From the NCBI GenBank assembly GCA_963848285.1, contig CAWKCZ010000007.1, forward strand, positions 361,597 through 425,596: a stretch of 64,000 bases of DNA, read 5' to 3'. This stretch comes from an uncultured delta proteobacterium. Its GTDB lineage: Bacteria; Desulfobacterota; Binatia; Binatales; Binataceae. Shown piece by piece: positions 1-64,000 of this stretch; the first letter of the stretch is position 1; every line of letters begins with the position of its first letter. The position numbers were made by a program, and so were the translations under genes. Under the pieces are notes generated by a model. The model worked only from the letters and a program-made list of their open reading frames with translations. It was not told the origin of the DNA and did no database searches.

Positions 1-203
1 ACATGAAAATGATCGATGGCGGCGGCGAGCTTGTAGCCTCCGCGGCTCGCATACTCGGATGCCGCGCCGACCACCTCGATCGCGGTGTCGGCATCGACTT
101 TGAGATCGGCCTTCGACGCGGGCCGCGAATTGACCCGCACCTTGCCGGCCATGATGAGGCGTTGCGCGCCCTCGCGGCTTTCGGCGAGGCCCGCGCGCGT
201 CAT
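1..203 (-). CDS. tlyA: TlyA-family rRNA 2'-O-methyltransferase / hemolysin A, N-terminal S4-domain part; gene runs off the window start
   Basis: Minus-strand translation from ATG at 203: MTRAGLAESREGAQRLIMAGKVRVNSRPASKADLKVDADTAIEVVGAASEYASRGGYKLAAAIDHF. This is the typical TlyA N-terminus and sits in the usual position downstream of xseB. Confidence 0.6.
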   Translation of the reverse strand, partial: MTRAGLAESREGAQRLIMAGKVRVNSRPASKADLKVDADTAIEVVGAASEYASRGGYKLAAAIDHFH

Positions 204-261
204 TTCGAGGTCAAGCCGCGTGCGCATCTACGTCGCTGAAGTAGGAACGATCACCGCAGAC

Positions 262-635
262 TCAGAATGGAATGTCGTCTTCGTCGTCGTTGCCGTTACT
301 TGGCGCGCGCCGTTTTCGCGCGAGCCGGCTCGACGGGCGCGATGTGTGGCACGCGCGGAGTCTCGGCGACGCGCGGGCGGCGCCGGCGCTTCCTTCGTCG
401 AGGCCTTCGTAGGGCGCGGTGCGCAGATCGCCACGGGAGTTGCGGCTGAGGACTTCGACCTTCTTTTCGATCTCGTCGAGCTTCTGATTGAGCGAGCGCA
501 CCAGCGCCGACGCCGCGCTCGAATGCGCCGATGGAATCTTCGAGACGTGAGTTCGCCGGAATCGATCTTGCCGACGATCTCCTCGAGGTCTTTCAATTCT
601 TCTTCAAACTTTTTTGGTTTCGCTGCTGTGGCCAT
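262..635 (-). CDS. xseB: Exodeoxyribonuclease VII small subunit; frame switch mid-gene
   Basis: MATAAKPKKFEEELKDLEEIVGKIDSGELT in one frame continues in the next frame as SLNQKLDEIEKKVEVLSRN. The exact 3' end is uncertain. Confidence 0.6.
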
Positions 636-794
636 CTCACCCCTCTACACTCGCGGCTTTCAGTTCGCGCTCGCAGCTTCCCTCGCCGTAACCGAATCTC
701 CAATTCGTCGCCGACCTCGAACCGTCTTGCGCGTCCATCACGGCGCGGCCGTCGCGAAGATTGGTTACTACCGCATAGCCGCGCTCCAGGCACT

Positions 795-2083
795 TCAAGC
801 GGCGAGGTCGCATCGAGTTGCGTCGCCAGCGAGCCGAGCCGCGCGCGATGCTTCTCGACCACGACCGTGCCGCTCGCGAATCAACGACGCCGAGGCGCGC
901 TCGACCGCCGCGCGCAGATGATGCGCGCGAAGCGTCATCGCCTGCGCCATCATGCGGGAAAGTTCGCGGGTGCGAATGCGCACCTCGCGCGCGATCGCGC
1001 TCGGCGGCCGCAGCCGCGCGACATACTCGCGAATGATGCGGCGCGCATCGAGGACGCGCGCTTCCATCGCGGCGGCGAGCTCCTCCGAAATGTCATCGAC
1101 ATGCGCATGCGCCTCGCGCATCAGCGCGCGCGGATGCTTCACGCGCGCGGCGAGGTAGTCGACGTCCTCGGCAAGGTCGTCGAGCATCTTGCGCATCGAG
1201 GAGGCGAGCGTGCGCTCGAGGTTGGCAACCTGCATCGCGCAGCTCGACCGCGCGAGGGCACCACCACGTGCGCGGCGAAGGTCGGCGTCGGCGCGCGCTT
1301 GTCGGCGACGAAATCCGCGATGGTGAAATCGATCTCGTGGCCGACCGCCGAGACGATCGGAATCCGCGAGCGGAAGATCGCGCGCGCGACGACTTCTTCG
1401 TTGAACGCCCACAAATCCTCGAGCGAGCCGCCGCCGCGTCCGACGATGATGACCTCGGCGCGCGCGTGGCGATTGAGATCCTCGATCGCGTCGGCGATAT
1501 CCTCCGCCGCGCCTTCGCCCTGCACCCGCGCCGGCCGGATGATGACGTTGCAGATTCGGGAAGCGATCGAGCAACACGCGCAGGATATCGCGCAGGCCGG
1601 CGCCGCCGAGCGCGGTCACGATACCGACGGTGCGCGGCAGAAACGGCAGCGCGCGTTTGCGGCCCGACATCGAAGAGGCCCTCGCTCATTGAGGCGCTGC
1701 TTGAGCTGCTCGAATGCGATCTGGAGCGCGCCCGCGCCGCGCGGCTCCATCTCCTCGGCATAGAACTGGAGCGTGCCGCGGGTCTCGTAGATATTCACGC
1801 GCCCGCGCACCACGACCTTCATCCCGTCGGCGGGCTTGAAGCGCAGGCGGCGCTTGGCCGAGGAAAACATCACGACATTGATCGACGCGTCGGCATCTTT
1901 GAGGGTGAAGTAGAAATGATTCGAGTTGGCGAAGCGCGCGTTGGAAATCTCGCCGGTAACCCAGCAGTCGCCGAAGCGCGCATCGAGCGCGTCGCGCACC
2001 AGCCGCACCAGTTGGCTGACCGTCAGCGCCGACGAGGTTTGCGCGCGCGGCGGACCGAGCGCGAGATCGAGCTGCCCCGCCAT
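795..2083 (-). CDS. xseA: Exodeoxyribonuclease VII large subunit; at least 3 frameshifts
   Basis: The N-terminal OB-fold segment (1616..2083), the middle segment [50 protein letters not shown] (1139..1525) and the C-terminal coiled coil (795..1670) lie in different frames. Confidence 0.8.
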
Positions 2084-2130
2084 ATGAGGAGAAGCTACCT
2101 CGAAGCCTCGCGCAGGCGGTAGTAACCACC

Positions 2131-2225
2131 TAACCCCTAACCCCTTCCCCCGAGAAGGATTCCGATAAACGCTGACTTTCTCTTTTCTCCTGATCCCCTT
2201 CCCTTAAGGGAAGGGGTTAGGTCTA
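2131..2225. repeat. REP-like palindrome cluster: half unit at 2131-2160 and perfect palindrome CCCCTTCCCTTAAGGGAAGGGG at 2196-2217 flanked by TAACC/GGTTAGG
   Basis: Read directly from the sequence. The same unit recurs at 7141-7180, 7262-7275, 7795-7830 and 34321-34370. Confidence 0.7.
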
Positions 2226-2900
2226 GCGCGACAGCGCGTCGATGATCTCGCGGGTGACCGGCTGCTTGAAGCGGACGCGCCCGAGGATCGGGACCTCGGT
2301 CATTTTGCGCAGCGATTCCAGATTCGTATCGGCGGCTGGCGAAGAGCGCCGCATCCACATCATTGAGGATCACGCCGACAATGCCGAGGCCGCGGCTGCG
2401 CGCGCGATCGATGCGTCAGCATCGAGGCGCTCAGGCATCCGGCGCGATTGCGCGCGCGACGACGGCGATGTCGAGATTCAGCATGCGCGCGAGGTCGGTG
2501 GCAATCCTTGCCCCACAGCAATCGGCGTCGCGATGCCACCAATGCCCTCGACGATCAGCGAAATCGTTGCGCGCGGCGATCTTCCGGTAGGCTTCGGCGA
2601 TTTCCAGAAGATCAGGGCGGTGCGCGATCCGTTTCCGCCGCGACTGGTGGTGCGATCGCGGCGATCGATAGCGATAGGGACTGATGCAACTCCATCGGCA
2701 GATCGCATGCGGCCGCATACGCGAGGCCGCGCGCATCGGCGGATTCGAGGATGCCATTGACCTCGCGGCATCCGGTCTCGATCGGCTTCATCACGCCGAC
2801 CCGCATCCCGCGTGCATGCGCGGCGAACGCGAGCGCGCATCCGATCAGCGTCTTGCCGACGCGCCACATCGGTCCCGGTGATGAGAATTCCTCGCGCCAT
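2224..2900 (-). CDS. bioD: Dethiobiotin synthetase; frameshifted
   Basis: GILITGTDV...VGKTLIGCALAFAAHARGMRVGVMKPIETG, ...DLARMLNLDIAVVARA and ...GVILNDV...LRKMTEVPILGRVRFKQPVTREIIDALSR* are spread over 3 frames. Confidence 0.7.
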
Positions 2901-3004
2901 CGAGGTCGATTCAATCATCGCGGGCGGGTTCCGCAAAGGGTTCGCGCGCAGCTAGATTGGCGCGCAGAACAGTAGATCGGCGGTTTCCCGTTCGGAGGGA
3001 TCCA

Positions 3005-3537
3005 ATGAGCGCGGCGGGCGTGGCTGAAAAAAATGTCATCGACAGATGGGAGCGGATGCGGGTGCGGCATGCGCACAAGCACCCGCCGGTGCAGAACATT
3101 AACGAGGCGGCGGAACAATCGATGACATTCGGTGAGCGCGCCTCCGATGCGTTCGCGGCGACGATGGGCAGTTGGATAGTTCATCATCATCCAGTCGATC
3201 GATCCTTGCAGATGTGGGTGGCGCTCAACATCACGGCCTACATCGAGCATTGGGATCCGTATCCGTTCATCCTGCTCAATCTCGCGCTCAGCCTCGAAGC
3301 GGCTTATGCTGCGCCGATCATCATGATGTCGCAGAATCGGCAGGCGGAAAAAGATCGCCTCGCGGCGGAAGAGGATTATCACGTCAACACCAAGGCCGAG
3401 GAGGAGCTGAAGGCGTGATGCATCATCTCGAGCAGCAGGACGAAATAATGCTCGACATTCTGCGCCGCCTCGAGGATCAGCATCGTGCGCTGCTGACTCG
3501 CCTCGACACCCGCAATGTCGCGAGCCCGTCGGCATAG
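3005..3537 (+). CDS. DUF1003-family membrane protein; probable frameshift near 3418
   Basis: ...IIMMSQNRQAEKDRLAAEEDYHVNTKAEEELKA followed in the +1 frame by MHHLEQQDEIMLDILRRLEDQHRALLTRLD. Confidence 0.5.
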
Positions 3538-3558
3538 GCTCCTTCAAAAGAAAACGGC

Positions 3559-3583
3559 CGGCGAGATGCCGGCCGTTCGTCAT
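3559..3583. terminator. Bidirectional intrinsic terminator hairpin (AAAACGGCCGGCGAGATGCCGGCCGTTCG) between convergent genes
   Basis: GC stem with an A/T flank on both sides. Confidence 0.5.
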
Positions 3584-3605
3584 TCAACGAATCTGTAGTG
3601 AAGCC

Positions 3606-5034
3606 CTACTGAGCGGCGTCGCCGGCGTTCTTCGCGAGCTGCACCTTGAAGCTGTCCCAGTGATTCAGGATGTCGATGGCCTTCTGTAGCTGGATGTCCT
3701 TTTCTTCCTTGGGCGGCTTGGTCGCGGAGGCTTTGCCGGGCTGCGGATTGCGATCCGCCGCCGGCCGGCACCGGGACCGCTCCTTGTGCTCTGATCGCCG
3801 GTCGGCTTTCGCGTCGGCGCCAGGATGCTGCTTGTTCTGGAAATGTCCGGGCAGATCGCGCTCGTGAATCTCGGGGTTCTCGTCGAGCTGCGCGCCTTCG
3901 CCTTCGAGCGATGCGAGCGTCGGCTTGGGATTGTCGACATCGACATCGGGAGTGATGCCGACCGCCTGGATCGAGCGGCCATTGGGCGTGAAGTAGCGCG
4001 CCGTGGTCAGCCGCAAGGCAGAATGATCATCGAGCGGCAGGATGGTTTGCACCGATCCTTTGCCGAAGGTCTGGGTGCCGACGATGACCGCGCGCTTCTG
4101 ATCCTGCAGCGCGCCCGCGACGATCTCGCTCGCGCTGGCGCTGCCGCCATTGACCAGCACCACCATCGGATAGTCTTCGAAGCCGGTCTTCTTATGCGAG
4201 AAGTATTTCTGCTGCTGATTCTCGTTGCGGCCCTGGGTGTAAACGATCAGGCCGCCGTCGAGGAACTCGTCGGAAACCTTGACCGCCTGATTGAGCAGGC
4301 CACCCGGATTGTCGCGCAGGTCGAGCACCAGGCCCTTCACCTTGCCATGATCCTGCTTCTGGAAATCATCGACGGCCTTTTCGACCGCGTCGTCGGTGCT
4401 CTCCTGGAAGGTGCTGATGCGGACATAGCCGTAGCCGTCCTGGCATGGTCTTGGCCTTGACCGATTGAATCTTGATGACGTCGCGCGCGAGCGTCACGTT
4501 GAACAGCTCGGCCACGCCCGTACGATGCATCGTCAGCTTGATCTTGCTGCCGCGCGGCCCGCGCATCCGCTTGACCGCTTCAGTCAGCGTCATGTCCTTG
4601 GTGAAGTCGTCATTGATCTTGATGATCTGATCGCCGGCCTTCAGCCCCGCCTTGTATGCGGGAGTGTCCTCGATCGGCGAGACGATGGTCAGCACGCCAT
4701 TTTTGATGGTGATTTCGATGCCGAGGCCGCCGAAGCTGCCGCGCGTCTCGACTTCGAGGTCGCGATAGAGCTCGGGCGTCAGGTACGCGCTATGCGGGTC
4801 GAGCGAGGCGAGCATGCCGGTGATCGCGCCGTCGATGAGGCGCTTGGTGGTGACCGGCTCGACGTAGTTCTTCTGCACGATCGCGAGCACATTCGCGAAG
4901 GTTTCGAGCTCCTGGTAGGAGTCGCTGGGGAGCGCCTGCGCGCGCCGCACCGCGACTTCTTCGAGGACCACGAAGCAGGCTATCAGGCAGGCCGCGAGCG
5001 TGATTGCCCATCGATTCTTCTTCATTACTGACAT
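3606..5034 (-). CDS. ctpA: Carboxyl-terminal processing protease (S41, PDZ domain); frameshift near 4340-4440
   Basis: N-terminal part with signal peptide and PDZ (4366..5034) and the S41 catalytic part GLVLDLRDNPGGLL...GSASASEI (3606..4340) are in different frames. Confidence 0.8.
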
Positions 5035-5113
5035 CCGAAACCTATCAACTTATAGAGTTCGAGCATTCAATCTAATCAAAAGCGGGCGTCGTTTGGATAG
5101 ACGCACCGCGCAA

Positions 5114-5722
5114 TCAACTCGCCTTGGCCGACAGCAATTGCTGCAGCGCCTCCTTCACGTCGGCGCGCGACCAGTCGAAGGCGCCCATATGATGCGCGAC
5201 GATGCGCCCGTTGCGATCGATGATAAACGTCTCGGGCACCCCGCTGACGCCGTAGGAATCGCCGACCTTGTTTTCCGGATCGAGCAGGATCCTAAAATGG
5301 TATCCGTTCTTCTCGACGTAGGGCACCACCGCCGATTTGCCCTTGGTGTCCTGGCTGACCGCGAGCATCACGAAGTCCTTGTTGCCCTTGAGCTCGTCGT
5401 ACAGCGTCTCCATCGAGGGCATTTCCTCGCGGCAGGGCCCGCACCAGGTCGCCCATACGTTGAGGAAAACCACCTTGCCCTTGAGCGACGCGAGCGAAAC
5501 GGTCTCGCCGGTGAGCGCATCCTCGAGCTTGAAGTCGCGCTCGCGATGTCGCCGGCCGGCACCGGGCGGCGCCTTCGCTGGTCGCCGTGCTCTCGCCCGA
5601 TGCGTCGGCAGCAGCGCGACCGCATGCGGATGGCTGAGCTCATACTGACGCCGCAAACAGCAGCAGCGCGGCGAGCACGAGGAATGCGCCGATGCGCGCA
5701 AGGGTCTTTCCGCTGATCTCCA
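5114..5722 (-). CDS. TlpA/ResA-like thiol-disulfide oxidoreductase (thioredoxin fold, WCGPC); frameshift after the N-terminal TM segment
   Basis: MEISGKTLARIGAFLVLAALLLFAA (stop), then ...KGKVVFLNVWATWCGPCREEMP...GVSGVPETFIIDRNGRIV in the frame of ORF 5114..6250. Confidence 0.7.
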   Translation of the reverse strand, partial: WRSAERPLRASAHSSCSPRCCCLRRQYELSHPHAVALLPTHRARARRPAKAPPGAGRRHRERDFKLEDALTGETVSLASLKGKVVFLNVWATWCGPCREEMPSMETLYDELKGNKDFVMLAVSQDTKGKSAVVPYVEKNGYHFRILLDPENKVGDSYGVSGVPETFIIDRNGRIVAHHMGAFDWSRADVKEALQQLLSAKAS

Positions 5723-5779
5723 TTTACGCCTGTCACCGCCGGCTTCCGGCTCCTGCTTCCGGCTTGCCGCTAGTGCTCG

Positions 5780-6598
5780 ATGGCGTTCGTCGGCGCCGGC
5801 ACGTGCGGGACGACATACATAATGCGCGCCGATGATCATCATCACGATCGCAATCAACTGCGCCTCGCTGAGACCCATGAAGACCCGCGGATTAACCCGC
5901 AGAAACTCGACCATGAAGCGCGCCGCGCCGGCGAGCATCAGATATAGATAGAACAACTGGCCGGGCACTTTGGTTTCCTTTCGCCGCGACCACAGAAACA
6001 GGAAGATCAGCGTATAGAGGATGGCCTCGTAAATCGGCGTCGGATGGACATGGACGCCCGGATAAAATGCCGACACCAAATGGTTATGGCTGTCGAGCTT
6101 CAGCACCGTGTTGCCGTTCCATCCCACGATCGCGTTGGGATACTGCACGCCCCATGGCAGCGTGGTCGGCATCCCCCAGTCGCCGTCGCCCGACAGATGG
6201 CATCCGATGCGCCCCAGCGCCTGGCCAATCACCAGCGCGGGGCCGGCCATATCGGCAGCGGTCCAGAACGGGACTTGGTAATATCGCGACGACGAAATAC
6301 GGAGACAGCAGGCCGCCGATCAGGCCGCCGTACCATACGAAGCCGGAGCCCGAGAAAATGATCGACCACGGGTCGTGCATGTAGGACGGAAATTGTCGAT
6401 GTACCGAATACAGCCGCGAGCATGCGATGCCGCGCGATCGCCGCCCACACCACCATCGAGGAGGCGAAATCGGTGTTGAGCCCGCGCCGTTTGCATTCCG
6501 AGCTGATGACGAAGTCGGCGGCGAGAAAGCCCAGCGCCATCATCATGCCCGTAGCTGTAGACGGTAATCGGGCCGAGCTTGAAGAGAACCGGAATCAT
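5780..6598 (-). CDS. lgt: Prolipoprotein diacylglyceryl transferase; 2 frameshifts
   Basis: MIPVLFKLGPITVYSYG / LMMALGFLAADFVISSECKRRGLNTDF / ...GCHLSGDGDWGMPTTLPWGV...HPTPIYEAILYTLIFLFL are in three frames. ORF 5114..6250 is an artefactual fusion of lgt and tlpA. Confidence 0.8.
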
Positions 6599-6690
6599 CG
6601 AGATGAAATTATAATAGCGCGTCCGGGGGCGGAGACCAGAAGGGTTCTGTTGCGCGGCAAAGTTAACATTGCAGAGTAGCAGGAGGGATC

Positions 6691-7146
6691 ATGCGGGCGG
6701 TTTTGCAGCGGGTTTCCCAGGCCGAGGTGCGCGGTCGAATGACGACGTCATCGGAAAAATCGGGCGCGGCTTCGTCGTCCTACTCGGGGTAGCGAAGGAT
6801 GACACCGAGAAGGATGCGGCCTACATCGCGGACAAGACCCTCGCGATGCGGGTCTTCGCCGACGCCGAGGGCAAGATGAACCTCGCGCTGCGCCAGGTCG
6901 GCGGCGAGCTGCTGGTGATCTCGCAATTCACGCTGCTGGCGGATACCGAATCGGGGCGGCGTCCCTCGTTCATCCGGGCCGCGCCTCCTGAGGAAGCGAA
7001 GCGGCTGTACGAGCTGTTCCTCTCGCTGGTGAGAAACGACGGTGTTAAGGTTGAGACTGGCGAGTTCGGCGCGATCGATGGCGGTATCGCTGATCAACGA
7101 GGGGCCGGTGACGATCATGCTCGATAGCCGGAAGCAGCAGACCTAA
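6691..7146 (+). CDS. dtd: D-aminoacyl-tRNA deacylase; frameshifts near the 5' and 3' ends
   Basis: MRAVLQRVSQAEV...(shift)...DDVIGKIGRGFVVLLGVAKDDTEKDAAYIADKTLAMRVFADAEGKMNLALRQVGGELLVISQFTLLADT...INEGPVTIMLDS. Confidence 0.8.
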
Positions 7147-7290
7147 CCCCTTCCCCTGAAGTGGAAGGGGGACTAAGCCCAAGCCGTTCTCTGCCTCGAC
7201 CCCGACGCGAATCGTCATACCCTCTCCAGTATGGAGAGGGCCGAAAGGTTGGAGGACAATTTTAAGGGAAGGGGATCAGAGGAAGAAAAT
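7141..7290. repeat. Cluster of short palindromes: CCCCTTCCCCTGAAGTGGAAGGGGG (7147-7171), CCCTCTCCAGTATGGAGAGGG (7220-7240) and half-site TTAAGGGAAGGGGA (7262-7275)
   Basis: Read directly from the sequence; intergenic between dtd and the DUF1285 gene. Confidence 0.65.
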
Positions 7291-7772
7291 GGCGCGCGCG
7301 GGATTCTATGCCGTCGAGTCGGGGAAGATTTCCTTCCGCAGGGACGGCAACTGGTATAGCGACGAGGAGCGCATCGACAATCCGCGCATCGCGCTGCTGT
7401 TCTCCCAGAGCATCAAGCAAAACCCCGACGGGTCAGCTACTTCCTGCAGGTCGCCGAGGAGCGCGCGCCCATCACCGTCGAGGACACGCCTTACGTCATC
7501 AAGGGCATCGAGGACGATGGCAACGGCGGATTCCGCTGATCCTCAATGATGACACGCGCGAGGCGATGGATCCCGCGACCCTCGAAGTCGGCGCCGACAA
7601 CGTCCTGTATGCGCGGGTGAAGGGCGGGCAGCATCGCGCGCGGTTCCTGCGCCCCGCGTACTATCATCTGAGCGAGCAACTTCGAGGCCGATGCCTCGGG
7701 GAGGTTTTTCATACAAATCGGCGGCAAGCGCTACCCGCTGAAATCCGCGAGCAGCAACGATTCCAAAGCTAG
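7289..7772 (+). CDS. DUF1285-family protein; frameshifted
   Basis: MARAGFYAVESGKISFRRDGNWYSDEERIDNPRIALLFSQSI..., then ...ITVEDTPYVIKGIEDDGNGG and ...LILNDDTREAMDPATLEVGADNVLYARVKGGQHRARFLRPAYYHLSEQL in other frames. Confidence 0.55.
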
Positions 7773-7794
7773 TCACAAAATCGCCTCCTGGTCC

Positions 7795-7830
7795 GTCCCC
7801 CTTCCCTCAAGGGAAGGGGTTAGGGGTTAG
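7795..7830. repeat. REP-like palindrome CCCCCTTCCCTCAAGGGAAGGGGTTAGGGGTTAGG
   Basis: Same family as the units at 2196 and 34339. Confidence 0.65.
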
Positions 7831-7852
7831 GTCAGCCGATCCGATCCTCCAC

Positions 7853-8303
7853 GTGGTCCTGGTGCGCCCCGAGATTCCGCAGAATACCGGCTCGATTGCG
7901 CGCATTGACCGCCGCGACACGTATCCGCCTACATCTAGTCGGGCCGCTCGGCTACTCGCTGGAGGATCGTTACCTCAAGCGCGCCGGGCCTCGATTACTG
8001 GCCGCTGGTGGATTTGCAGACCTATGCGGATGGGAGGAGTTCATCGCCGCGCATCCCGATGCGTCGATGAAATTCTTTTCCGCGCGCACCGAGCAATCCT
8101 ACTTGCAGGCGCAATATCAGCCCGGCGATTTCCTGGTGTTCGGCAGCGAGACCAAGGGACTGGGTCGCGAGTTCATCGCGAAGAATATCGAGCGCACCTA
8201 TACCATCCCGATTTTCGAATCAGGCGTGCGAAGCCTCAATCTCTCCAATGCGGTGTCGATCGTGGTTTACGAAGCGCTGCGCCAGACCGGCACCATCCGC
8301 TGA
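7853..8303 (+). CDS. trmL: tRNA (cytidine/uridine-2'-O)-methyltransferase, SpoU class; 2 frameshifts
   Basis: MVLVRPEIPQNTGSIAR / ...RIRLHLVGPLGYSLEDRYLKRAG / ...FLVFGSETKGLGREFIAKNIERTYTIPIFESGVRSLNLSNAVSIVVYEALRQ. Confidence 0.75.
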
Positions 8304-9324: not shown

Positions 9325-10187
9325 TCAACCCCTTCGGACTTGCTCCTCGTACACCCGCAGCACCGATTCGGTCTCGGCATCGGCCGGATAGAAAACCTCG
9401 ACGTGAAGGTCCTGCAGCGTTACATCATTCGGGGTCGCGACGGTGGTGACGGTGCTGAACATCCGCGCAATTTTCCCATCCAGCTTCAGCTCCATCGGAA
9501 GAATCAGATCATGCGGCGCTTCGAGGTCGGGTTCACGCCATCGCGTCGGAATGCCGGGGTAGGCGAGGATCTCCGTAATGAGGTCCTCGCAAGTCGTCGT
9601 CGCGCGCCCATGCCAGCCGGCGATAGGCCTCGTTCAGGAGCGACTTCGCGATCGCCTCCCAGTTCAGGATGACTTTGCGCGAACCCGTTGGGATCGAACA
9701 GCAGGCGCAGCACGTTGATACGCGGCGCTTTCGAATATCGTCAGCGGCGTCAGGCCCTCAGGCTCCTTGCCGAGGGTCTGGTGAGAAACCGGATGAAGGC
9801 CTCATTCGCCATCACGATGTTCCAATGACGATCGTGTGCGAGCGCGCTGCGCGGCTCATTCGACTTGAGCATCACCTCGACCGCCGCGCGCACCTGCGTC
9901 ATGCGCGGATCATCGAGGCTGGTTTCGCCATAGACCGGCGCATAGCCGGCGGCGAGCAGCAGGAAATTTCGCTCGCGCAGCGGGATGTCGAGCACGTTCG
10001 AGAGCATCAGCAGCATCTCGCGGCTGGGCTCGGCGCGGCCGGTTTCGAGGAAGCTGATGTGGCGCGCGGAAACTTCCGCGTCGAGCGCGAGGTCGAGCTG
10101 GCTCAGATGCCGCGCCTCGCGCCATCGACGCAGAAGCGGCCCGACGCCGCTGGGTTCCACCGCCGTTCCATTGCGATGAATGTCCAT
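9325..10187 (-). CDS. MmyB-like transcriptional regulator (XRE HTH plus C-terminal MmyB domain); at least 3 frameshifts
   Basis: N-terminal LRRWREARHLSQLDLALDAEVSARHISFLETGRAEPSREMLLMLSNVLDIPLRERNFLLLAAGYAPVY. C-terminal pieces ...LLFDPNGFAQSHPEL / ...DLEAPHDLILPMELKLDGKIARMFSTVTTVATPNDVTLQDLHVEVFYPADAETESVLRVYEEQV are in other frames. Confidence 0.6.
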
Positions 10188-10189
10188 GC

Positions 10190-10878
10190 CTATAGCCTTA
10201 GCAGCGAGCGGGACCTCGCGCGATTACCTCGCGAGGTAATGCTTCGCATCGCCTTGGCGCGCGCGCGCGCCTGCTGCTCCTGGTAGAGCGCCATTTCCTC
10301 GGCCATCGCCTTGGCCACATTGGGTCGCTGCGCCATGCGATCGAAGTAAGCTCGCCACCGCCGGCCATTTCGCCAGATCGAAGCCCACGAATCGCGCCCA
10401 ATTAAGCACCGTGACGAGGTATGCATCGGCGACGGTGAAACGATCGAGCAGAAATTCGCGGCCATCGAGATGGCGGTTGAGGTGCGCGAGGCGGCGCTCC
10501 GCCTTCTCGCGCGCATATGTTTGGCGCCCTCGGTGGCGGTCGGATCGAGCAGCGGGATGAACACCACCTTGTGCAGTTCCGAGGTCATGAAGTTCAGCCA
10601 TTGCTGCAGGCGATAGCGCTCGATGCCGCTTTGCGGAGCGAGGCCTGACTGCGGGCTTTTGATCGGCGACATATTGCAGCACCACCGGATTTTCGGTGAG
10701 CAGCTCGCCCGCATCGGTGCGCAGCACCGGCACCTGACCCATCGCGTTGACCGCAAGAAAATCCGATCCGTCGGCGAGCTTCTTCGCTTGCGTGTCGACA
10801 TCGATGAAGTTGGCCTGTGATGCCGCCCTCGTAAAGTGCGATCCGCGTGGCCATCGAGCATGCGAGAGGAGAGAAATA
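10190..10878 (-). CDS. Glutathione S-transferase; frameshifted
   Basis: MDLYFSPLACSMATRIALYE / ...MGQVPVLRTDAGELLTENPVVLQYVADQKPA...FLLDRFTVADAYLVTVLNWARFVGFDLAKWPA / ...YFDRMAQRPNVAKAMAEEMALYQEQ. Confidence 0.65.
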
Positions 10879-11018
10879 AAGATCCATCGGATATCCTCCT
10901 TGGGAAAAGTTCCCGATGAGACGCGACTTTCTCATCGGCCTCATCGGGAGCGATAAGTAGCCTACTTCTGTGGCTTCTGCGGCAGCGGGCGCCTCGTCGA
11001 CGAAACCGGTGACGGCTT

Positions 11019-15266: not shown

Positions 15267-15361
15267 AGCCTCGAAATCTGGTTAAGACGAACCTCGAAGT
15301 TTAACCCAGTGACTGCAGCCCTCGCAATTTAGCCATCTTCGCGATCAAAAGCTGCACGCGC

Positions 15362-18920: not shown

Positions 18921-18926
18921 GGAGCC

Positions 18927-52252: not shown

Positions 52253-54170
52253 TTAGATCTCGTAACTGAGGGTCGCCTCCAGCTCGCTGATGCGCTGGTC
52301 GCGGCTGAACAGGAACGGATCCGTGTTGCGTCCGCTGCGGCCCAGGTACCAGATCCCATTCAGCCCCAACAGGATGTTACGCGAATAGCGGAACACGTTG
52401 GTGCTGCCCAGGTTGCCGGTGTTGTCGTCGATGTCCCATGCAAACGCGTTGGTCGACGTCAACTGTCCATTGACCAGCCAGTTGGTGCTCGCAAGGAAGA
52501 AGAAGTTGCTGAAGCGACGCACCTTGCCGTATGCATTCGCGATGTTCGGAATCGCATGCCCCGGCAGATCGGGGTACCAGGTCTCGACGAACTGGCCGAC
52601 CAGGAAGGTGTGCTGCTTGGAAATCCATGGAATGTAGGTCGGACGGTCGCCGGCCAGGATGAAGCGGCCGAACTCGGTCCACCGTGCTGCCGACTCACCG
52701 AGCCGCACGTTACGCGTCACGACCGGAGACGCACTCGGCGTAGGACCGCCAGTGGGCGGACCTGAAACGTTGATACCGACCTTCGGGGCGTACAGCGTGT
52801 CGTAGCGGAACACCATGTCGGTCAGGTCTTTGTCGTAGTAGGTTCCCGTCAAACCGAAGAAGTGGTTGCGACGGAAATTCTCGCTGGTGTACGGACGAAT
52901 CGTTCCGAACGGCACCGGGCCTCCCGGAGGCGGTGCACCGAAATCGAACTGCCCGGGCAGCAGGAATACGCCCGGAAAGGCCTTAATGGTTCCGCCACCG
53001 CTTCGGTTGATCGGAGTCGGGCACGACGAGCATAGACCCGCTTTCGAATAGCGCGCCTCGTAAAGGTAGATGAAGCTTGCCTGCAACCCATTTCCGATCG
53101 GCAGCAAACTCGAATAACGGAAACCAAACTCACTCTTGTCCAGCGTGTTGCGCGGAGTGTTCGAATATCCCGCTCCACCGGTTAAACCACCACTGGGATC
53201 AAACTGCGTATAGACATTGGTGGGCGCCGCAGCAGTTCCGAGGTTGGTGATACTCGATGGGAACTGTCCCAGATCCGCGAAGGTCTGATGCCGATAGGGC
53301 TGCCCAAGGCGGTTGTATTGAATGAGCGGTCCGACCGGCGCTCGCACCATCCACGGGTTGCGAGCGTCGTTTAGCTGAACGACCGCAGTGTCACCCTGGT
53401 AATCGCCCGGAATGACGAAAGCCTCGGCCTCGTTGTTCGCGGTCTTCAGGAAGTCCGGCAGGATGTAGTTGAACTTCAACATCCTGACGTTCTTGCGCAG
53501 ATTTTCCGCGGTCTCGAAATGAGTCCAATGAAAGCTCAGATCGTTCGGGTTGGTAATTTCAGTTCCCGACAACGCATCAGCTTCCGACCAGATGACCTGC
53601 TGCTTGCCGACACGGGCGGAAAAGTTGTCGCTGAAATTTAGCTGCCCGTAGTACTCGCGCAGGTCGTTGCGGAAATACTCCTCCTGGATCTCCTGCTGCG
53701 TATACACCTTCCAGTCGCGTGCGGTCTGCGCGACGCCCTCGCGCTTGAGGGTCCCCAACGCGTTGTACCAGGGACGATAGAACGCAAAGAAATCCGCGTC
53801 CTTAAGAATCAGTGTGTCGAGGCGGCCGAGGAACTTGTAGTTCTTGACCATGTGGTAGTCGGGCCGGACGTCGGCCAGTTGCCGCATCTGCACCAGGTCC
53901 CAATGGTTGAAATCGAAGCTCCCGCCGGTTTCCGTCGGTGCGCGTCCGGGATTGGTCTGGATTGATCCCGACCCCCGGTACCGGCGGTGTGAAGGTCGCA
54001 GGACTTCCGGTCCCGGACTTGGCACTGCCCTCGCCCCATCGACCGGACTCCCGGGTTTCAAAGAATCCGAACACCGAAAAGTCGCCCTGTGTGATCGTTG
54101 CGTTCGCTGCGGAGGTCCACAGCGTCGCGACCCCGGCGCATGCGGCGATCAACAGATTTCGCCAGCGCAC
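52253..54170 (-). CDS. Large outer-membrane beta-barrel protein, copy 2; one frameshift near 53940-54060, at a different place from copy 1
   Basis: ORF 52253..54061 (602 aa, intact through the region broken in copy 1) plus the N-terminal signal-peptide segment 53802..54170. Confidence 0.55.
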
Positions 54171-54574
54171 ACCGCGACCAACATTCCAATTTGTTCTTCA
54201 CCATATGCTCCCCAAAGCTGACTGCTTCTTCCGGAGGTCAGCTATTTTGCCCCGACCCGAACAATACTGTTTGTCGCACCTATTCCATTACGGGCACGTT
54301 AACGCGGCCTAGGTAGCATCTTGCCGAAGAGGTTGTCAAGCAGGCGTCCCGAAACGAGACATCGCGCGATGCCCTTGTAAAATCGGGCAGTTAGGCGCAT
54401 GCGCGGCGCCAAATCAGGTCACCATGCGGGTTTCGAGCTTGAGAGAAGACGAATTCAAACACCACGCGCGGGCGGCTGGCAGCAAATTTTCTCGATCGTG
54501 CCGGACCACGGGTGCGCGCCCATGAGTCTGAGTAACTCTCAAATACGCGCGGGCTTATGGATGCCGAACAGGAT

Positions 54575-55165: not shown

Positions 55166-56507
55166 TTGGATTCCTCCGCAGCCTCAGGAGGCGGAACTTT
55201 GTCGGGAAAGCCGCCCTCGTCGTACGCAGCCGCAAGCACTTCGAGCGGATGCACCGGATGCACTCCCGTCGCCTGCTCGATCTGAATCGCCGAGAGCGGG
55301 CAATCGGTCGTCATCAAATTCGCGTCGGCGTCGCGCATGCCGTTGAATGCCTTCGCGCCCCATTTCATCGAGAGCTCGAAGTACTCCTTCTTCATCGCCC
55401 AGATGCCGTCGTGCGCGGTGCACGCATCGACGCTGACGACCTCGGCGCCGGGAATCGTGCGCATCATGTCGCGCGAGCGAAAGCCAATCTGCTGCGCCTT
55501 CAGATGACATGGGATGTGGTAGGCGACCTTGCCCGGCGTGGTGCGAAAATCGCGATTAAACTTGCCGTCGCGCTTGAGCTGGAACAGCAGCTCGTTCGGA
55601 TCGACCACGGCCGCGGCGAATTCCTTCACCTCATCGCCGGGAAGCAGCAGCGGATACTCGCGCCGCATCGTCAGCGAGCAGGTCGGATTGATCGCCGCGA
55701 TTTTGAATCCGCGGCGCACGTACGGCAGCATCGAATCGATGTTGGCGCGCGCCTGCTTCTGCGCGAAATCGACATCGCCGCCGTCGAGCGCCGGCATCCC
55801 GCAGCAGTTCTGCTTCGGGCATGCGATCTCGCATCCATTCTTTTCGAGCACCTTGACCGCGGCCTTGCCCGGCGCGGTGTCGTAATAATTGATGAAGCAG
55901 GTCGGGAATAGCACGACCTTCGCGGTCGGATTCGTGGGCGGCTTCGGCAGGTTGTCGCGCAGCCATTTGTCGAGCGTCTGATCGGCAAACTCGGGAAGCT
56001 TCTTGTCGCGATGAATCCCGAGCAGCTTCTCCATCAGCGCGCGATTGAGCGTGTTGCGGCATCCGAAGTTCGCGAGCCCCGGCAGCAGGCTGCCGAGCTT
56101 CCCGAGGCGATCGGGATTCGAGAGCATCTTGTCGCGGAACTCGACGCCCTTCTCTTTCGCCGTGACCGCCTTGTCGCGCTGCATCAGACGCGGGAAATCG
56201 AGCTGGAACTCGTGACCATCACCGGGAGTGTACGGACATCGCACCTCGCACATCTTGCACAGGTAGCAGAGGTCGACGACGTTGCGTTTCTCATCAGCAG
56301 TGAGCTTGACGAACGTCGCCGTCGTTGCGGTCGACCGCATCGAACAGCGCCGGGAACGAAGGGCACAAATTGAAGCACAGCCGGCATCCGTGGCAGATGT
56401 CGAACACGCGGGTGACTTCCTTGTCGAGGCCCTCGCGGCTCCAGTACTTCGGTTCAGTCGATGTTGTAGGTAAGCCCGTCGGTCGGCTGCGACGAAATGC
56501 GGCTCAT
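55162..56507 (-). CDS. Heterodisulfide-reductase-related (Fe-S)-binding protein (2x C-x2-C-x2-C-x3-CP plus CCG domains; GlpC/HdrD-like); N-terminal frameshifts
   Basis: MSRISSQPTDGLTYNID / ...VFDICHGCRLCFNLCPSFPALFDAVD / ...DLCYLCKMCEVRCPYTPGDGHEF...FPTCFINYY...CCGMP... Confidence 0.7.
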
Positions 56508-56628
56508 GCGGAATTCAGCCTTTTCGATAGCGATGCGAAAAGCATCGCCGGGTGAGATGCTGCTCTGCACCCGGCGACCAGATTCGGGAAATGCCGGCCG
56601 CGGCCGCACACGACGATTCGGTAGCAGA

Positions 56629-59371: not shown

Positions 59372-60621
59372 CTAATTCCTCCGCACGTTGCGGAAGGGGC
59401 CGGTGTCGAAGCGCGGCTCCTTCGGCAACTCCATCACCCGCTCCGCGATGATGTTGCGCTGAATCTCGTCGGTGCCGCCCGCGATCGATACCGCCGGCAC
59501 CGATACGAGGATCTCCGCGATGATGCCCTCGCGCGGGCTCTCCGGTCCGGTCAGCATCGCCTCGGTGCCGGTCATCATCGTATGCACTCGGGCGCAGGCC
59601 CGCGCGACGTGGCTGGCTGCCAGCTTTCCGAGCGAGCCTTCGGGACCTTGCGGACGGCCCTGCTGCTGGGCGGCGCGCGCGCGACGCGCGGTCCATTCGG
59701 CCGACTTCGCCATGATCATCAGCTTGGCGATTTCCTGCCGGATGTGCGGGATCCTCGTTCGCGCCGGTTTCCTTCGCGCGCTCGAGGATGAGGTCCACTC
59801 GCCGGCGCGCTGCGGATACCATCTGTAGGGCTCGTTGGCCTTTTCGTTTTCGGCGCGCTCCTCGGCGTGAATGTGTCCCTGGCGCGATGCCGCGCTTTGA
59901 TGGAGTCGCGAGGCCGTCGGCGCCGCGGCGCTCATGCGCGAGCGTCGTCATCGCGACCTTCCATCCGTCGCCGACCTTGCCGACGAGATTTTCCGCCGGC
60001 ACTTTCGCATCGGTGAAGAAGACCTGGTTGAACGATGCGTGGCCGTTCATCTGCTTGAGCGGCTGCACATCGACGCCGGGCTGCTTCACGTCGATCACAA
60101 AGTACGACATCCCCTCATGCTTGGGCGCGTCCCAATCGGTGCGCGCGAGCAGACAGGCCGTGGTCGGCATGATGCGCGCTGGTGGTCCAGACTTTCTGTC
60201 CGTTGACGATCCAGAAATCGCCGTTCAAATCCGCGCTGGTGGTCGCGCCCGCGAGGTCGGAGCCGCTGCCGGGCTCGCTGAAGAACTGGCACCAGGTGTC
60301 TTCGCCGGTCAGGATGCGGCGCAGGAACTTTTTCTTCTGCGCATCGCTGCCATGTTCGAGCAGCGTCGCGGCCGCCAGATGGCGCACGCCCGACCGCGCG
60401 GCGCTCACTGCGCCGACGTTGGCAAATTCCTCCTCGACCACGCGCGCGAGCGATGACGGCAACCCACGCCCGTACCATTCCTTGGGCCACTGCGGCGCGC
60501 CCCATCCCGGAATCGGCAAGCTTGCTGCGCCATTCCAGCAGCGACATGTCGGGATCCCAGTTGGCCGCGAGCCATGTCGCGAACTTCGGCGCGCACTTCG
60601 GCTTCGGCTGACGTTACTCAT
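59372..60621 (-). CDS. Acyl-CoA dehydrogenase (1 of a tandem pair); frameshifted
   Basis: ...QFFSEPGSGSDLAGATTSADLNGDFWIVNGQKVWTTSAHHAD / ...LLARTDWDAPKHEGMSYFVIDVKQPGVDVQPLKQMNGHASFNQVFFTDAKVPAENLVG / ...GGTDEIQRNIIAERVMELPKE... Confidence 0.7.
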
Positions 60622-60624
60622 CGC

Positions 60625-61803
60625 TCAAACTCCCCATCGCTGCATCAACAGCTCGCGATGATAACTCGGTTGGCCGAGGAAAACCTCGGAACTCTTGGCG
60701 CGCTTGAACCACAGATGCGTATCGTTGTCCCAGGTGAAGCCGATGCCGCCATGAAGCTGAATGGTTTCGATCGCGGTCTGCAGATAGGTCTCCGACGCCG
60801 ATGGCCTTGGCGAGGCTGGCCAGCGCCGGCCACTCCGGGTCATCGACCGCGGCTGCCTGCGCGGCGTAGTAGGCGGCGGACTTCGCGAGCTCCACATCGA
60901 GCAGCATATCGGCGAGCTTATGCTTGATGGCCTGGAAGGAGCCGATCGTGCGTCCGAACTGGACCCGCAGCTTCGAGTAATCACCGCCGAATCGAGCAGC
61001 GCTGCGCACCGCCCACCATCTCATTGGCGAGCGCGATGGCGGCCTGATCCATCGTGCGGACTGGATCGCGTTCCGCCCGTCATCGCAGATTGCCGAGCAG
61101 ATGCGCGTGGGCGCCACGAAATCGATGCGCGCGATCTTGCGCGTCGGATCCATCGACGGCGAGCGGGCTTCGCTCGACGCCCGCGGCGTTCGCCTCGAGG
61201 GTGAACAGACCCGAAGCCCTCGCGACCGCTCGCCGGGGCACGCGCGCGGCGACGACCAGCAAATCGGCGATGTGACCATCGACGACGTAGCTCTTGGCTC
61301 CGTCGAGGCGGAAGCCATGACCGTCAGTGGTGGCGACGGTCTCGATGCTGCGCCGGATCCCAATTGCCGTTCGGTTCGGTGATCGCGAGCGTCGCGAGTC
61401 GCGCGCCGCTGGCGATGTCCGGCAGCAGGCTCGCTTTCTGCGCCTCGGTGCCCGCGTTCAGGATCGCGTTCGCGGCGAGCACCGAGGTGGAAAAATACGG
61501 TGCGCACAAACCAGCGCGCGGCCGAACTCCTCCATCACGATGCCGAGCTCGACCATGCCGAATCCCGCGCCGCCGTATTGCTCCGGAATATGGATGCCGG
61601 GGAGCGCGAGTTCCTCGCTCATCTGGCGCCACACTGCGGGATCGTAGCCCTCGGCGGTGGCCATCAGGCGTCGGACCTCGGTGGTGGGCGATTTGTCAGT
61701 GAGAAATCGCCGAATGCGCCGAGCGGAACTGCTCCTGCTCATCGGTAAATGCGAACTGGATGCGATGGGCGGGATCGGTTTTCGATTTTTGGGTTGCGCT
61801 CAT
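60625..61803 (-). CDS. Acyl-CoA dehydrogenase (2 of the pair); frameshifted
   Basis: MSATQKSK.../...EELALPGIHIPEQYGGAGFGMVELGIVMEEFGRAL / ...YFSTSVLAANAILNAGTEAQKASLLPDIASGARLATLAITEP / ...QFGRTIGSFQAIKHKLADMLLDVELAKSAAYYAA / ...IQLHGGIGFTWDNDTHLWFKRAKSSEVFLG... Confidence 0.7.
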
Positions 61804-62002
61804 CGGGATAAAACTGCCTTTGTAGCGGGCCTTCGATGCCCGCGTTAGCGATCATCATCTGAATAGCAACGATCGATTGACGACGTAAACCGCAGCAGGT
61901 TTGACTCGTCGATGGCGTCGCCGGAACGGTTCTTGGAAACCGCGCGCATTGATCCATGGCCATCGCCGGTGGAACGCCTCAATTTCGCGTGTGGAATTGA
62001 GG

Positions 62003-62246
62003 ACCAAAGCCATCGAGGATTCAACGGGACGTTCGCGAACGCCCCCTACGGTTCGATGCGAGGTGCCGATATCCAAGGTTTGAGACAGTCGACGGCGTCG
62101 CAGGAAGAGCCCCCGTTTTTTGGTTCGGTACACCGTTTCGATTCGTAGGGGCCGTTCGCGAACGGACCGATGAATCCTGATCCGCGCAGCGTTCATCTAT
62201 TCCTGGAAAGCGCAGACCAACCCGCCGCCGTAGTGGTTGGCACGCG
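62003..62246. repeat. Roughly 170-bp palindromic element, copy 3, bounded by near-identical 24-bp direct repeats TCAATTTCGC(G/C)T(G/T)TGGAATTGAGG at 61979-62002 and 62247-62270
   Basis: ATCGAGGATTCAACGGGACGTTCGCGAACGCCCCCTACGGTTCGAT ... CGATTCGTAGGGGCCGTTCGCGAACGGACCGATGAATCCTGATCCGCGCAGCGTTCATC; aligns with copies 1 and 2, with a swapped internal palindrome. Confidence 0.6.
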
Positions 62247-62301
62247 CGTCAATTTCGCCTTTGGAATTGAGGTGCTGATGTTCCAATGCCGCCGGGTGTG
62301 T

Positions 62302-63183
62302 CTAGGGCAATGGCACCACGTCGTCGAAATGGGTGTAGTCAATCGAGAGCCCGCCGTCGTCTTCGCGCTGCAGAATATCGACGAAGCGATGCCCCCACAG
62401 GATGTCCCGCGGCTGGTAGATGTGGCGGGCGTGGACCGTCTGCGCAAAGGTCTCGTCAAGGCCGATCATCGAAACGATGACCTCGGCGCGCGAGGCCTCC
62501 ATCGTTTCCACCGTGAGTCCGCTGATCGGCGAGTCCTCGGTTATCGGATGAATTGCGGTCCACGAGTAGATGAACATCGCGTTGCGCTCGCGCTGGAGCT
62601 TCAAATCGTAAAAGCGGCGCATCTCCTCGCCTTCGAGGGTTCGTTCCTGGCGTCCGAAGATCACGCGCGCGCTCGCATCGACGATGCGGTTGGCGCGCAT
62701 GTTGGCCATGCGAAATTGCAGGCTCGGAATGCCATCGCGGTTGGCGACGATCGCGACCTTGCTGAAACGCACGCGCGCGCTCGGACGCGAGAACTTCGCG
62801 AACACCAACCCGGTCACCATCGCGAGGCCGATCAACCCGGTGAGCGCCTCGATGCTCATCATCACTTCGGCGAGGAACGTGTCGGGCTCCATTTTGCCGT
62901 AGCCGATGGTGGCCATGGTCTGCACGCTGAAGAAAAACGCGTCGGCAAATGAACCGGGGCGCGCGTTCTCGATGCCTCGATCGAGCAGATAGACGACCGC
63001 GAAGATGGAGTTGATCGCGATGAAGATCAGAACGATTCCGGCGAGCAGCGTCGGCCACGACTCCGTGAGCAGGTAGTGGTAGAGGTCGCTGAGATGGCTT
63101 CCGTCGAGCCCCATGATAGTCGCGGATTGCGACGACTCGGGGCTCGCGACAATCTTGCGGCGAGTGCGCGATCGTATCGGCAT
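62302..63183 (-). CDS. Inward-rectifier-type potassium channel (KirBac-like; TIGYG selectivity filter); intact
   Basis: ...TLLAGIVLIFIAINSIFAVVYLL...FFFSVQTMATIGYGKMEP...; C-terminal cytoplasmic Ig-like domain. Confidence 0.7.
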   Translation of the reverse strand: MPIRSRTRRKIVASPESSQSATIMGLDGSHLSDLYHYLLTESWPTLLAGIVLIFIAINSIFAVVYLLDRGIENARPGSFADAFFFSVQTMATIGYGKMEPDTFLAEVMMSIEALTGLIGLAMVTGLVFAKFSRPSARVRFSKVAIVANRDGIPSLQFRMANMRANRIVDASARVIFGRQERTLEGEEMRRFYDLKLQRERNAMFIYSWTAIHPITEDSPISGLTVETMEASRAEVIVSMIGLDETFAQTVHARHIYQPRDILWGHRFVDILQREDDGGLSIDYTHFDDVVPLP

Positions 63184-63342
63184 CAGTTAGCGGTTTCTCC
63201 CCGCTCGGTTCCTCCCCCGTTGATCGGGGGAGGTGCTCCGGCGCAGTTCATGCGATGGCTGCGAGCACGAACTGTGACGGGGCGGAGAGGGACCTCAGCT
63301 CCGGATTCTGCCTCCGGCGCTTCCTTGAATCTATTTCAGCGA

Positions 63343-64000
63343 CGCCTTCAGCTCTGCGGCCAAATCCGCGGGTCGCCGTCTTGCCCTGATCGATAGCGGC
63401 CTGCAGGCTGAAGAAGCCATGCACCACGCCGTCGTAGCGTTTCACGTCGACTTTGTTGCCGGCCTGCTTGAGCGCCTCGGCGTATGCCTCGCCCTCATCG
63501 CGCAAGCGGATCATGCGAGGCGGTGATGATATGCGCGGGAGGCAGATTTTTCAGGTCCTTGGCGCGGATCGGCGACGCGTACGGATTCTCGCCGTCCTTC
63601 GATCCTTCGAGAGTAGTGGCCCCAGAACCACACCATGTCGGCCTTCGAGAGCACGAAGCCGTCGGCGGTGAATTCCTGGTGCGACGGCGTATCCATCGCG
63701 GCGTCGGTCACCGGGTAGATCAGCATCTGATGGCGAATGCGTGGGCCGCCGCGGTCGCGCGCCATCAGCGCGATTGCCGCCGCGAGGTTGCCTCCGGCGC
63801 TGTCGCCGCCGACCGCGATATGGTCCGCGTCGCTGCCGAGCGAGGCCGCGTTCTTCGCCACCCATTGCGTCGCCGCATAGCAGTCCTCGGGCGCGGCAGG
63901 AAATTTTGCTTCCGGCGCGAGGCGATAATCGACCGCCACCACTGTACATCCGGTCTCGTTGGTCAACGCGCGGCACACGTAGTCATGGCTTTCGAGGTCG
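63343..64000 (-). CDS. Alpha/beta-hydrolase-fold esterase/lipase (HSL family); frameshifted; runs off the window end
   Basis: ...VVAVDYRLAPEAKFP...HIAVGGDSAGGNLAAAIALMARDRG / ...[36 protein letters not shown]... Confidence 0.65.

Follow-up and report, generated by a model that had tools for sequence, protein, structure and literature searches.

Conserved genes in this stretch of DNA from an uncultured Binataceae bacterium (64,000 nucleotides, hereafter the window) are repeatedly split between reading frames, which raises the question of whether the genes are broken in the organism or only in its deposited sequence. Our analysis points strongly to the latter: the frame breaks are very probably consensus errors of the deposited assembly and not mutations in the organism.

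Extent and distribution of the frame breaks

The breaks are present in the deposited sequence, far beyond chance. Frameshift-aware protein-to-DNA dynamic programming (DP) alignment to intact orthologues, with up to three references per gene, placed 101 frame-breaking events in 37,860 nt of comparable coding sequence. All were 1–2 nt long (82 single-base insertions, 13 single-base deletions, and six two-base insertions), and 28 of the 42 reference-covered genes carried at least one. Six more genes were split: a cupredoxin by tblastn, panB, panC, bioD, and a second acyl-CoA dehydrogenase (ACAD) by three-frame Pfam scans, and a methyltransferase. The total of ~34 bears out an earlier note on this DNA, which had claimed at least 30 broken conserved genes; its names for xseA, ctpA, tlpA, lgt, dtd, trmL, metH, cca, gmd, panB, panC, bioD, and both ACADs were upheld by Pfam or orthology. 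Likewise, tblastn with intact orthologues of the relative L001 spread single genes over several frames. DNA-level alignment to two to four relatives identified 32 window-specific 1-nt insertions versus five deletions, and there are at least six insertions for every deletion.

Events are strongly clumped in 1-kb bins (chi2 = 141, df = 44, p = 4e-12), consistent with the non-uniform distribution described earlier. On the minus strand near the start of the window, xseA (exonuclease VII large subunit; 954–2092) has four breaks (~1684, 1668, 1547, and 1225), a bioD-like gene (AAA_26, dethiobiotin synthase family; 2900–3600) has profile positions 11–78 and 119–170 in different frames, and ctpA (S41 peptidase; 3609–5046) has one insertion at ~4443. 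Three insertions in lgt (6550, 6432, and 6290) and one to three in tlpA (5645, 5602, and 5538), both on the same strand, create a 378-aa ORF (5114–6250, minus strand) that joins the C-terminal half of lgt, ~100 aa of out-of-frame junk, and the TlpA thioredoxin domain; the earlier reading of this ORF as a false lgt-tlpA fusion was correct. The genes dtd, DUF1285, and trmL/SpoU (6515–8297, plus strand) have ~3 breaks each, and an MmyB-like HTH regulator and a SnoaL-like gene (9331–11412, minus strand) have four and two, respectively. In metH (11738–15300, minus strand), both ends are dirty and the central 2.2 kb is clean, with insertions at 12143, 12396, 12669, 14938, and 15280 and a compensated pair at 12334/12321. 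An NAD-dependent epimerase/dehydratase (15362–16254, plus strand) contains five insertions (15451, 15462, 15747, 15948, and 16145).

The densest long patch, with 29 events in 2.5 kb, spans 18463–21048 (plus strand) and holds two TadE-like genes (six and seven breaks), a SAM methyltransferase (five), and a DUF1499 gene (11, all +1); the claim that the Tad pilin genes are broken thus stands for two of them. It is followed on the plus strand by a luciferase-like monooxygenase (two breaks) and an SDR gene (three to four) at 21229–23116, and by cca (23282–24614), which has 10 single-base insertions. An ABC transporter ATPase gene (24623–26120, plus strand) has ~7 insertions and runs through frames 2>3>1>2>3 by tblastn, yet the two permease genes directly downstream of it have none. 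The cupredoxin gene (31136–31493, plus strand) switches from frame 2 to frame 3 at ~31385. Within the 786 bp of a class I SAM methyltransferase gene (31579–32364, plus strand), where about six shifts had been counted previously, five references agree on 12 single-base insertions (1.5%; one reference merges two of them), and local density reaches 1–1.5% in such genes, including DUF1499 and cca. Next to it, panB (at least two breaks) and panC (at least one to three) are split across frames at 32642–34311 (plus strand).

Farther along, on the minus strand, a zf-HC2 anti-sigma factor gene (34652–35410) lacks three bases relative to the contig L165 (~35079, 35071, and 34837), gmd (41312–42326) has one insertion at 41834, and a CCG/4Fe-4S protein gene (55180–56584) has two (56306 and 56461), confined to its N-terminal part. 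One of two ACAD genes (59420–62200, minus strand) is broken at 60508, 60153, and 59792 and the other switches frame at least four times, and an alpha/beta hydrolase gene (63334–63999, minus strand) has three insertions (63612, 63506, and 63367). Patches cross gene and operon borders, and indels also occur in intergenic DNA (insertions at 15280, 15313, and 57075). Between the patches, full-length single-frame matches occupy four runs (26.1–31.38, 35.4–41.3, 42.7–48.8, and 56.6–59.2 kb), as the earlier note had recognized. One (26116–31380, plus strand) keeps to a single frame in each of its genes, namely the two permeases, a 411-aa lipoprotein-like ORF, and a metallophosphoesterase, and another comprises an ECF sigma factor, DUF6404, nitronate monooxygenase, an SDR, and three more genes (35407–41103).

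Selection on the broken genes and the state of their relatives

With frames corrected, the broken genes look fully functional and under normal purifying selection, judging from their substitution patterns. Their dN/dS values (0.07–0.25) compare with 0.05–0.29 in intact neighbors, and differences from relatives fall mostly at codon position 3 (35/15/129 in cca). Removing the 10 inserted bases from cca restores a single 440-aa ORF that is 92–93% identical to intact homologues over 100% of its length. No corrected alignment contains an in-frame stop, in keeping with the earlier statement that disruption is almost exclusively by indels; the sole stop candidate, a TAA at 18660, lies inside a poorly aligned TadE-like gene. 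Nor did alignments to relatives reveal any larger window-specific deletion within a gene.

These patterns bear directly on whether genuine, ongoing pseudogenization, through reductive decay or in a hypermutator lineage, could have hit ~34 genes in this strain. Genuine pseudogenes accumulate in Mycobacterium leprae, Rickettsia, and recent host-restricted lineages, and the window resembles these cases in having many housekeeping genes frameshifted within one region; the breaks are truly in the deposited sequence, and they are clumped while some neighboring genes are intact. However, the window shows none of the stops, larger deletions, deletion bias, raised dN/dS, or sharing among strains that mark real decay. 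Substitutions exceed indels several-fold in bacterial pseudogenes, and dozens of stops would be expected, whereas the ~113 indels here came without one. The insertion bias is opposite to the deletional bias of bacterial pseudogenes that Mira, Ochman and Moran reportedly described in 2001. Decay would further require up to 12 independent events in one small gene, the loss of normally indispensable genes (lgt, cca, metH, and panBC), and patches that cut through genes and take in intergenic DNA.

Relatives tell against decay as well. In 70 of 74, metH is without breaks, and all four broken copies come from Nanopore metagenome-assembled genomes (MAGs) of the Microflora Danica (MFD) project (4 of 27 such MAGs versus 0 of 47 other genomes; Fisher p ~0.015). 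None of the window's indel sites recurs in L083–L085, L012, L003/L005, or L165. A pair of paralogues within the window (48895–50854 and 52256–54216, minus strand) provides an internal control: the copies are 97.2% identical, and each of three indels (~50360, 53970, and 54184) is private to one of them. Two independent Logan contigs from run ERR11594399 allow a closer comparison. L163 is 99.95% identical to the window, gap-free, across a clean stretch, and L165 (99.6% identical) has an uninterrupted 254-aa ORF for the anti-sigma gene, the one broken gene for which a near-identical strain offered a comparison. L165 represents a slightly different strain (0.2% SNPs; ~99.8% identical) and hence does not come from strictly the same genome; its anti-sigma gene differs from that of the window by six substitutions, all at codon position 3 and five of them synonymous, and the gene has therefore been under selection until very recently. 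L165 itself has one indel, which would break DUF6404.

The earlier note had offered assembly error and pseudogenization as alternatives. We strongly favor the former because selection is unrelaxed, stops are absent, and 1–2 nt, insertion-biased indels reach as many as 12 in a gene, and because the patches ignore gene and operon borders while the orthologues of nearly all relatives, and the anti-sigma gene of the near-identical strain, are intact; pseudogenization is accordingly very unlikely. The extra bases might alternatively be real, if kilobase patches in this strain had very recently undergone a burst of single-base mutations biased toward insertions. Such a burst, arising for example from patch-wise error-prone repair or recombination, would be too recent to have marked substitution patterns; we consider it highly improbable.

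Sequence context of the inserted bases

The earlier proposal that the indels might sit in homopolymer runs was not supported. Only 12 of 47 insertions adjoin an identical base (22.3 expected, p = 0.002), and only one lies inside a run of at least four identical bases. Because indels are depleted beside identical bases, the artefact is not the classic homopolymer-length error that is the signature of Nanopore, 454, or Ion Torrent data. This placement speaks against homopolymer-type error while leaving the broader reading as a consensus artefact unaffected. Contexts were heterogeneous, with no enriched k-mer or methylation-like motif at indel sites.

The same contexts speak to recoding, under which the DNA would be correct and the genes rescued by programmed +1 frameshifting, transcriptional slippage, or RNA editing by nucleotide deletion. 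All that favors it is that the shifts are nearly always +1. However, shift sites share no common motif, and no slippery heptamer or homopolymer conserved in orthologues was found at them; the orthologues are single-frame. Indels also occur in intergenic DNA and can be private to one paralogue copy, and the near-identical strain is free of them. We know of no bacterial recoding system operating at such density, and recoding is effectively refuted because the sites are not conserved.

A more plausible refinement concerns how the consensus errors arose. Collapse of reads from at least two co-occurring strains, rather than mere low depth, is possible as their main cause, though we hold this only tentatively; it would be a sub-mechanism of consensus error and not a true rival to it. 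During such collapse, the consensus may emit both SNP alleles in tandem or mis-align around nearby variants, a reading with which the avoidance of identical neighbors agrees. The inserted base matches the relatives' alternative allele at an adjacent column in 13 of 47 cases (5.0 expected, p = 9e-4). Furthermore, public runs hold at least two strains of the window's population (L163, described above, and L164, at 99.6% identity), and the differences from L165 all fall at third positions. Against this, the tandem-allele signal comes nearly all from one block (metH, 9 of 12, versus 4 of 17 in cca and 0 of 13 in lgt), an underpowered test for synonymous alternative alleles gave 11 of 18 versus 44% expected (p = 0.12), and relatives at 82–93% identity are a poor proxy for polymorphism within the sample. 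There is nevertheless a precedent: in the long-read consensus of Trypanosoma brucei Lister 427, collapsed allelic variants shift read alignments and produce indel errors and apparent frameshifts, much as they might in the window; the indels are uneven and track local heterozygosity, and phasing and correction restore full-length ORFs (PMC8445201). That case involves PacBio data from a diploid eukaryote, whereas the window would reflect co-occurring soil bacterial strains, and the evidence tying its indels to polymorphic sites is partial.

Probable origin of the errors and consequences for annotation

The window lies on a 579.5-kb contig of a Candidatus Binataceae MAG, and this assembly most probably derives from soil DNA sequenced with long reads only, in the manner of Microflora Danica (Nanopore reads, metaFlye, and one Medaka round). 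MFD Nanopore MAGs are the closest genomes to it; their authors used Flye with --meta --nano-hq and one round of Medaka and reported that coding density was low where MAG coverage was low (PMC12313526). We infer the Nanopore platform of this contig from its length and from these neighbors in sequence space, and likewise infer low depth and/or strain mixture as the cause of the errors. In some stretches, reads of the strain may have been few and/or piled up with those of related, co-occurring strains, so that the consensus step there would retain extra bases and yield single-base insertions at 0.5–1.5% locally, while better-supported stretches of 2–8 kb would emerge clean.

In assemblies and MAGs built from Nanopore or PacBio CLR long reads only, as in the window, single-base indels divide conserved genes among neighboring ORFs that differ in frame, gene callers yield fragments and false fusions, and short-read-assembled relatives are intact. 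Error density in such assemblies follows local read support, as would that of the window if its read support varies as we suppose. Unlike their usual homopolymer deletions, however, the errors here are insertions that avoid homopolymers, and they reach 1–1.5% in kilobase patches while adjoining kilobases are error-free. Both the insertion excess and the homopolymer avoidance are atypical of textbook Nanopore error. The contig is also an outlier of its presumed class: metH breaks are ~35-fold fewer in typical MFD MAGs. These observations, like the lack of an enriched methylation-like motif, weigh against the explanation proposed here.

The affected genes have ordinary housekeeping roles in a Binataceae bacterium from soil, and the breaks carry no biological import. 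They do matter for annotation, as the earlier note had warned in stating that the breaks dominate interpretation and defeat gene calling. In the first 35 kb, gene calls are wrong for about half of the genes, and frame correction is needed before the region is interpreted; once that is done, any other finding in the window that depends on ORF structure, unusual small ORFs, fusions, or "missing" genes should be looked at again. Since the errors are non-homopolymer and insertion-only, in kilobase patches, they would escape homopolymer-based filters. Coding density serves as a check in the MFD-LR catalogue (PMC12313526), and Kastor is one of the frameshift-aware tools that deal with genes fragmented by indels (PMC12007338). 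Public protein collections already contain, as singleton clusters, gene fragments and one or more chimeric "proteins": the product of the lgt-tlpA fusion ORF (P0122) is found there verbatim, and the ORF occurs verbatim together with intact proteins of the window on one 579,524-bp NCBI/ENA contig.

Frame breaks in the conserved genes

The frame breaks of the window are not a biological feature: our data support assembly error and reject pseudogenisation with high confidence, settling an alternative that the earlier note had posed for at least 30 conserved genes split by indels. Using a purpose-written protein-to-DNA dynamic-programming (DP) aligner with explicit frameshift moves and up to three references per gene, we found frame breaks in 28 of 42 reference-covered genes. 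The best reference for each gene gave 101 events over 37,860 nt, comprising 82 one-base insertions, 13 one-base deletions and 6 two-base insertions. Break sites placed by different references coincided within a few bases, and the 10 insertions in cca fell at identical positions with all six references tried. Searches with tblastn and intact orthologues from the relative L001 followed the ABC ATPase through frames 2>3>1>2>3 and likewise split the SDR, cupredoxin, SpoU, DUF1285 and dtd genes, while three-frame Pfam scans showed that panB, panC, bioD and the second acyl-CoA dehydrogenase are also split. A dedicated homologue search placed 12 insertions in the methyltransferase (31579-32364), so that the high density of shifts described there stands but the figure of about six does not. 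Adding the cupredoxin, panB, panC, bioD, second acyl-CoA dehydrogenase and methyltransferase genes to the DP set brings the count to about 34 broken genes, in agreement with the earlier estimate. A codon-usage HMM frame tracker produced noisy segmentation and strand errors; it served as a rough guide only, and homology-based DP was used instead.

The events are strongly clumped (chi2 = 141, df = 44, p = 4e-12), as the earlier note had described, and its runs of intact genes held up in single-frame checks of those stretches. Patch borders cut through genes: both ends of metH are dirty and its middle 2.2 kb clean, the CCG protein gene is broken near its N-terminus only, and the ABC ATPase carries about 7 breaks next to two untouched permease genes. 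Intergenic DNA also carries insertions. All events in the densest genes are +1, and their spacing appears irregular. tRNA and Rfam scans of the whole window returned zero matches.

Coding constraint and comparison with relatives

Once frames were corrected, the broken genes showed no sign of decay. No in-frame stop occurred in any corrected alignment of the reference-covered genes, and the single in-frame TGA reported previously could not be located in any of them. Pairwise dN/dS between corrected broken genes and close references was 0.07-0.25, indistinguishable from intact neighbours (0.05-0.29), and differences concentrated at third codon positions. Removal of the ten inserted bases from cca restored one 440-aa ORF with a terminal stop, 92-93% identical over its whole length to intact CCA-adding enzymes of 440-444 aa; the stitched methyltransferase was 82-83% identical to intact 260-aa homologues. 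Bacterial pseudogenes accumulate more substitutions than indels, and more deletions than insertions. Real pseudogenes with more than 100 indels would therefore be expected to contain dozens of nonsense codons and to have visibly raised dN/dS, neither of which was seen.

The intact part of MetH, searched against species-representative genomes, retrieved Candidatus Binataceae MAGs. The three best were L083 (97% amino acid identity; MFD05512.bin.1.184, a Nanopore MAG from Microflora Danica, MFD), L084 (96%; a MEGAHIT short-read MAG) and L085 (95%; MFD04944.bin.1.36), which share 82-93% DNA identity and synteny with the window at 8.8-25 kb. Other relatives cover 3.5-8.3 kb (L012), 22-35 kb (L001 and L002) and 54.6-64 kb (L003, L005, L006 and L171). 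The orthologue comparison proposed in the earlier note found a MetH frame break in only 4 of 74 alignable relatives: 4 of 27 MFD Nanopore MAGs (L086, L093, L111 and L120), each single and sporadic, versus none of the 47 others, nearly all of them short-read assemblies. The window MetH alone has five to seven. These metH breaks suggest that artefacts of this class also occur, at a low background level, in the MFD catalogue.

Signature and possible origin of the insertions

What is surprising is the error signature, which is insertion-biased, non-homopolymer and patchy. Indels were polarised as window-specific through multiple DNA alignments with relatives, which yielded 32 one-base insertions versus 5 one-base deletions in three multi-reference blocks and 47 insertions summed over six blocks. 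Inserted bases mirrored base composition (G 13, C 10, A 6, T 3 in the first set; the window has 61% G+C). The suggestion that indels might sit in homopolymer runs failed: only 12 of the 47 insertions adjoin an identical base, fewer than the 22.3 that simulations of random insertion predict (p = 0.002), which rules out homopolymer extension. A methylation or other sequence motif, suspected by eye as CGATG/GATG, was not significant, and k-mer enrichment around the insertions was unconvincing (best 5-mer CATCG, 11 versus 4.4 expected; uncorrected p = 0.003 among 512 k-mers).

The genomes closest to the window come from the MFD long-read catalogue. The metallophosphoesterase (30162-31136) matches, at 100% identity, a protein from a single 579,524-bp NCBI/ENA contig; five more window ORFs lie on that contig, whose length fits a presumed MFD long-read origin. 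Data for that catalogue came from Nanopore flow cells (FLO-PRO114M) and were basecalled with Guppy SUP, assembled with Flye (--meta --nano-hq) and polished by one round of Medaka; the catalogue's authors noted that low-coverage MAGs had a low coding density (PMC12313526). A local pure-insertion rate of about 1% could arise if, with very few reads available, the consensus keeps any base that one of them contains; a deletion in one read would be rescued by another.

Collapse of co-occurring strains may make a second contribution; indel errors caused by collapsed variants have been documented in long-read consensus sequences (PMC8445201). Some inserted bases may represent both alleles of a SNP written in tandem. 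The inserted base matched the alternative allele at the adjacent column in 13 of 47 cases overall versus 5 expected (p = 9e-4), and the avoidance of identical neighbours points the same way, but the signal is driven by the metH block (9 of 12 inserted bases) and was not seen in the other blocks. An underpowered test of the inserted base as a synonymous alternative allele gave p = 0.12.

Paralogues, close strains and stored proteins

Two paralogues within the window (48895-50854 and 52256-54216, both minus strand; product about 641 aa, without a Pfam match) share 97.2% identity, and the three one-base gaps between them are the three DP frame breaks, each private to one copy. The spacer between them, about 1.4 kb long, has a lower GC content (54%) and holds an AT-rich leader and an ORF (51212-52174, plus strand) that has an HTH-like stretch and no Pfam match. 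Relatives L166-L168 have one copy only, directly followed by a NusG-like gene. Either a genuine duplication flanking an inserted gene or a duplication of strain haplotypes introduced during assembly could account for the pair.

Exact-protein look-ups led to independent Logan contigs of near-identical strains (L163 and L165, ENA run ERR11594399). Look-ups for same-strain contigs beside insertion-dense genes gave no match for most proteins. A search with corrected cca returned homologues of at most 93% identity, and so did not yield the same strain's version of an insertion-dense gene. The comparison with L163-L165 took in 34.5-37.2 and 44.3-46.3 kb of the window. L163 differs from 44460-46321, a clean stretch, by one substitution and zero gaps. 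L165 matches 34552-37247 at 99.6% identity; every one of the six substitutions lies at a third codon position and five are synonymous, which marks them as genuine strain SNPs. Indels between the two are frame-breaking in one or other assembly: the anti-sigma factor is an intact 254-aa ORF in L165 where the window is three bases short, and one L165 indel would break DUF6404. Public runs ERR11594399/ERR11523645 contain at least two strains of this Binataceae population that are very close to the window (99.95% and 99.6% identity).

Gene calls made on this record cannot be relied on, as previously argued, and other findings in the window should be re-read on frame-corrected sequence. The ORF at 5114-6250 (minus strand) is, as the earlier note held, a false fusion, joining the C-terminal half of lgt to the TlpA thioredoxin domain. 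This chimera (P0122, 5117-6250 on the minus strand) already exists unaltered in public protein collections, where it forms a singleton cluster derived from the 579,524-bp contig, so artefactual 'novel' proteins of the record are already propagating.

Two repeat features were also seen. A REP-like short repeat, GTCATCCTGA[C/G]GTGAGC, has 7 copies with up to 3 mismatches versus 0.5 expected by chance, in both orientations (11509-11724, 34431-34635 and also 9657); its clusters are intergenic, downstream of metH and of panC/anti-sigma. Relative to L084 and L085, the window has an extra 68 bp of intergenic DNA at 22173-22240; this window-specific insertion includes an internal direct repeat, GTGAGGCA(C)AGAGAC.
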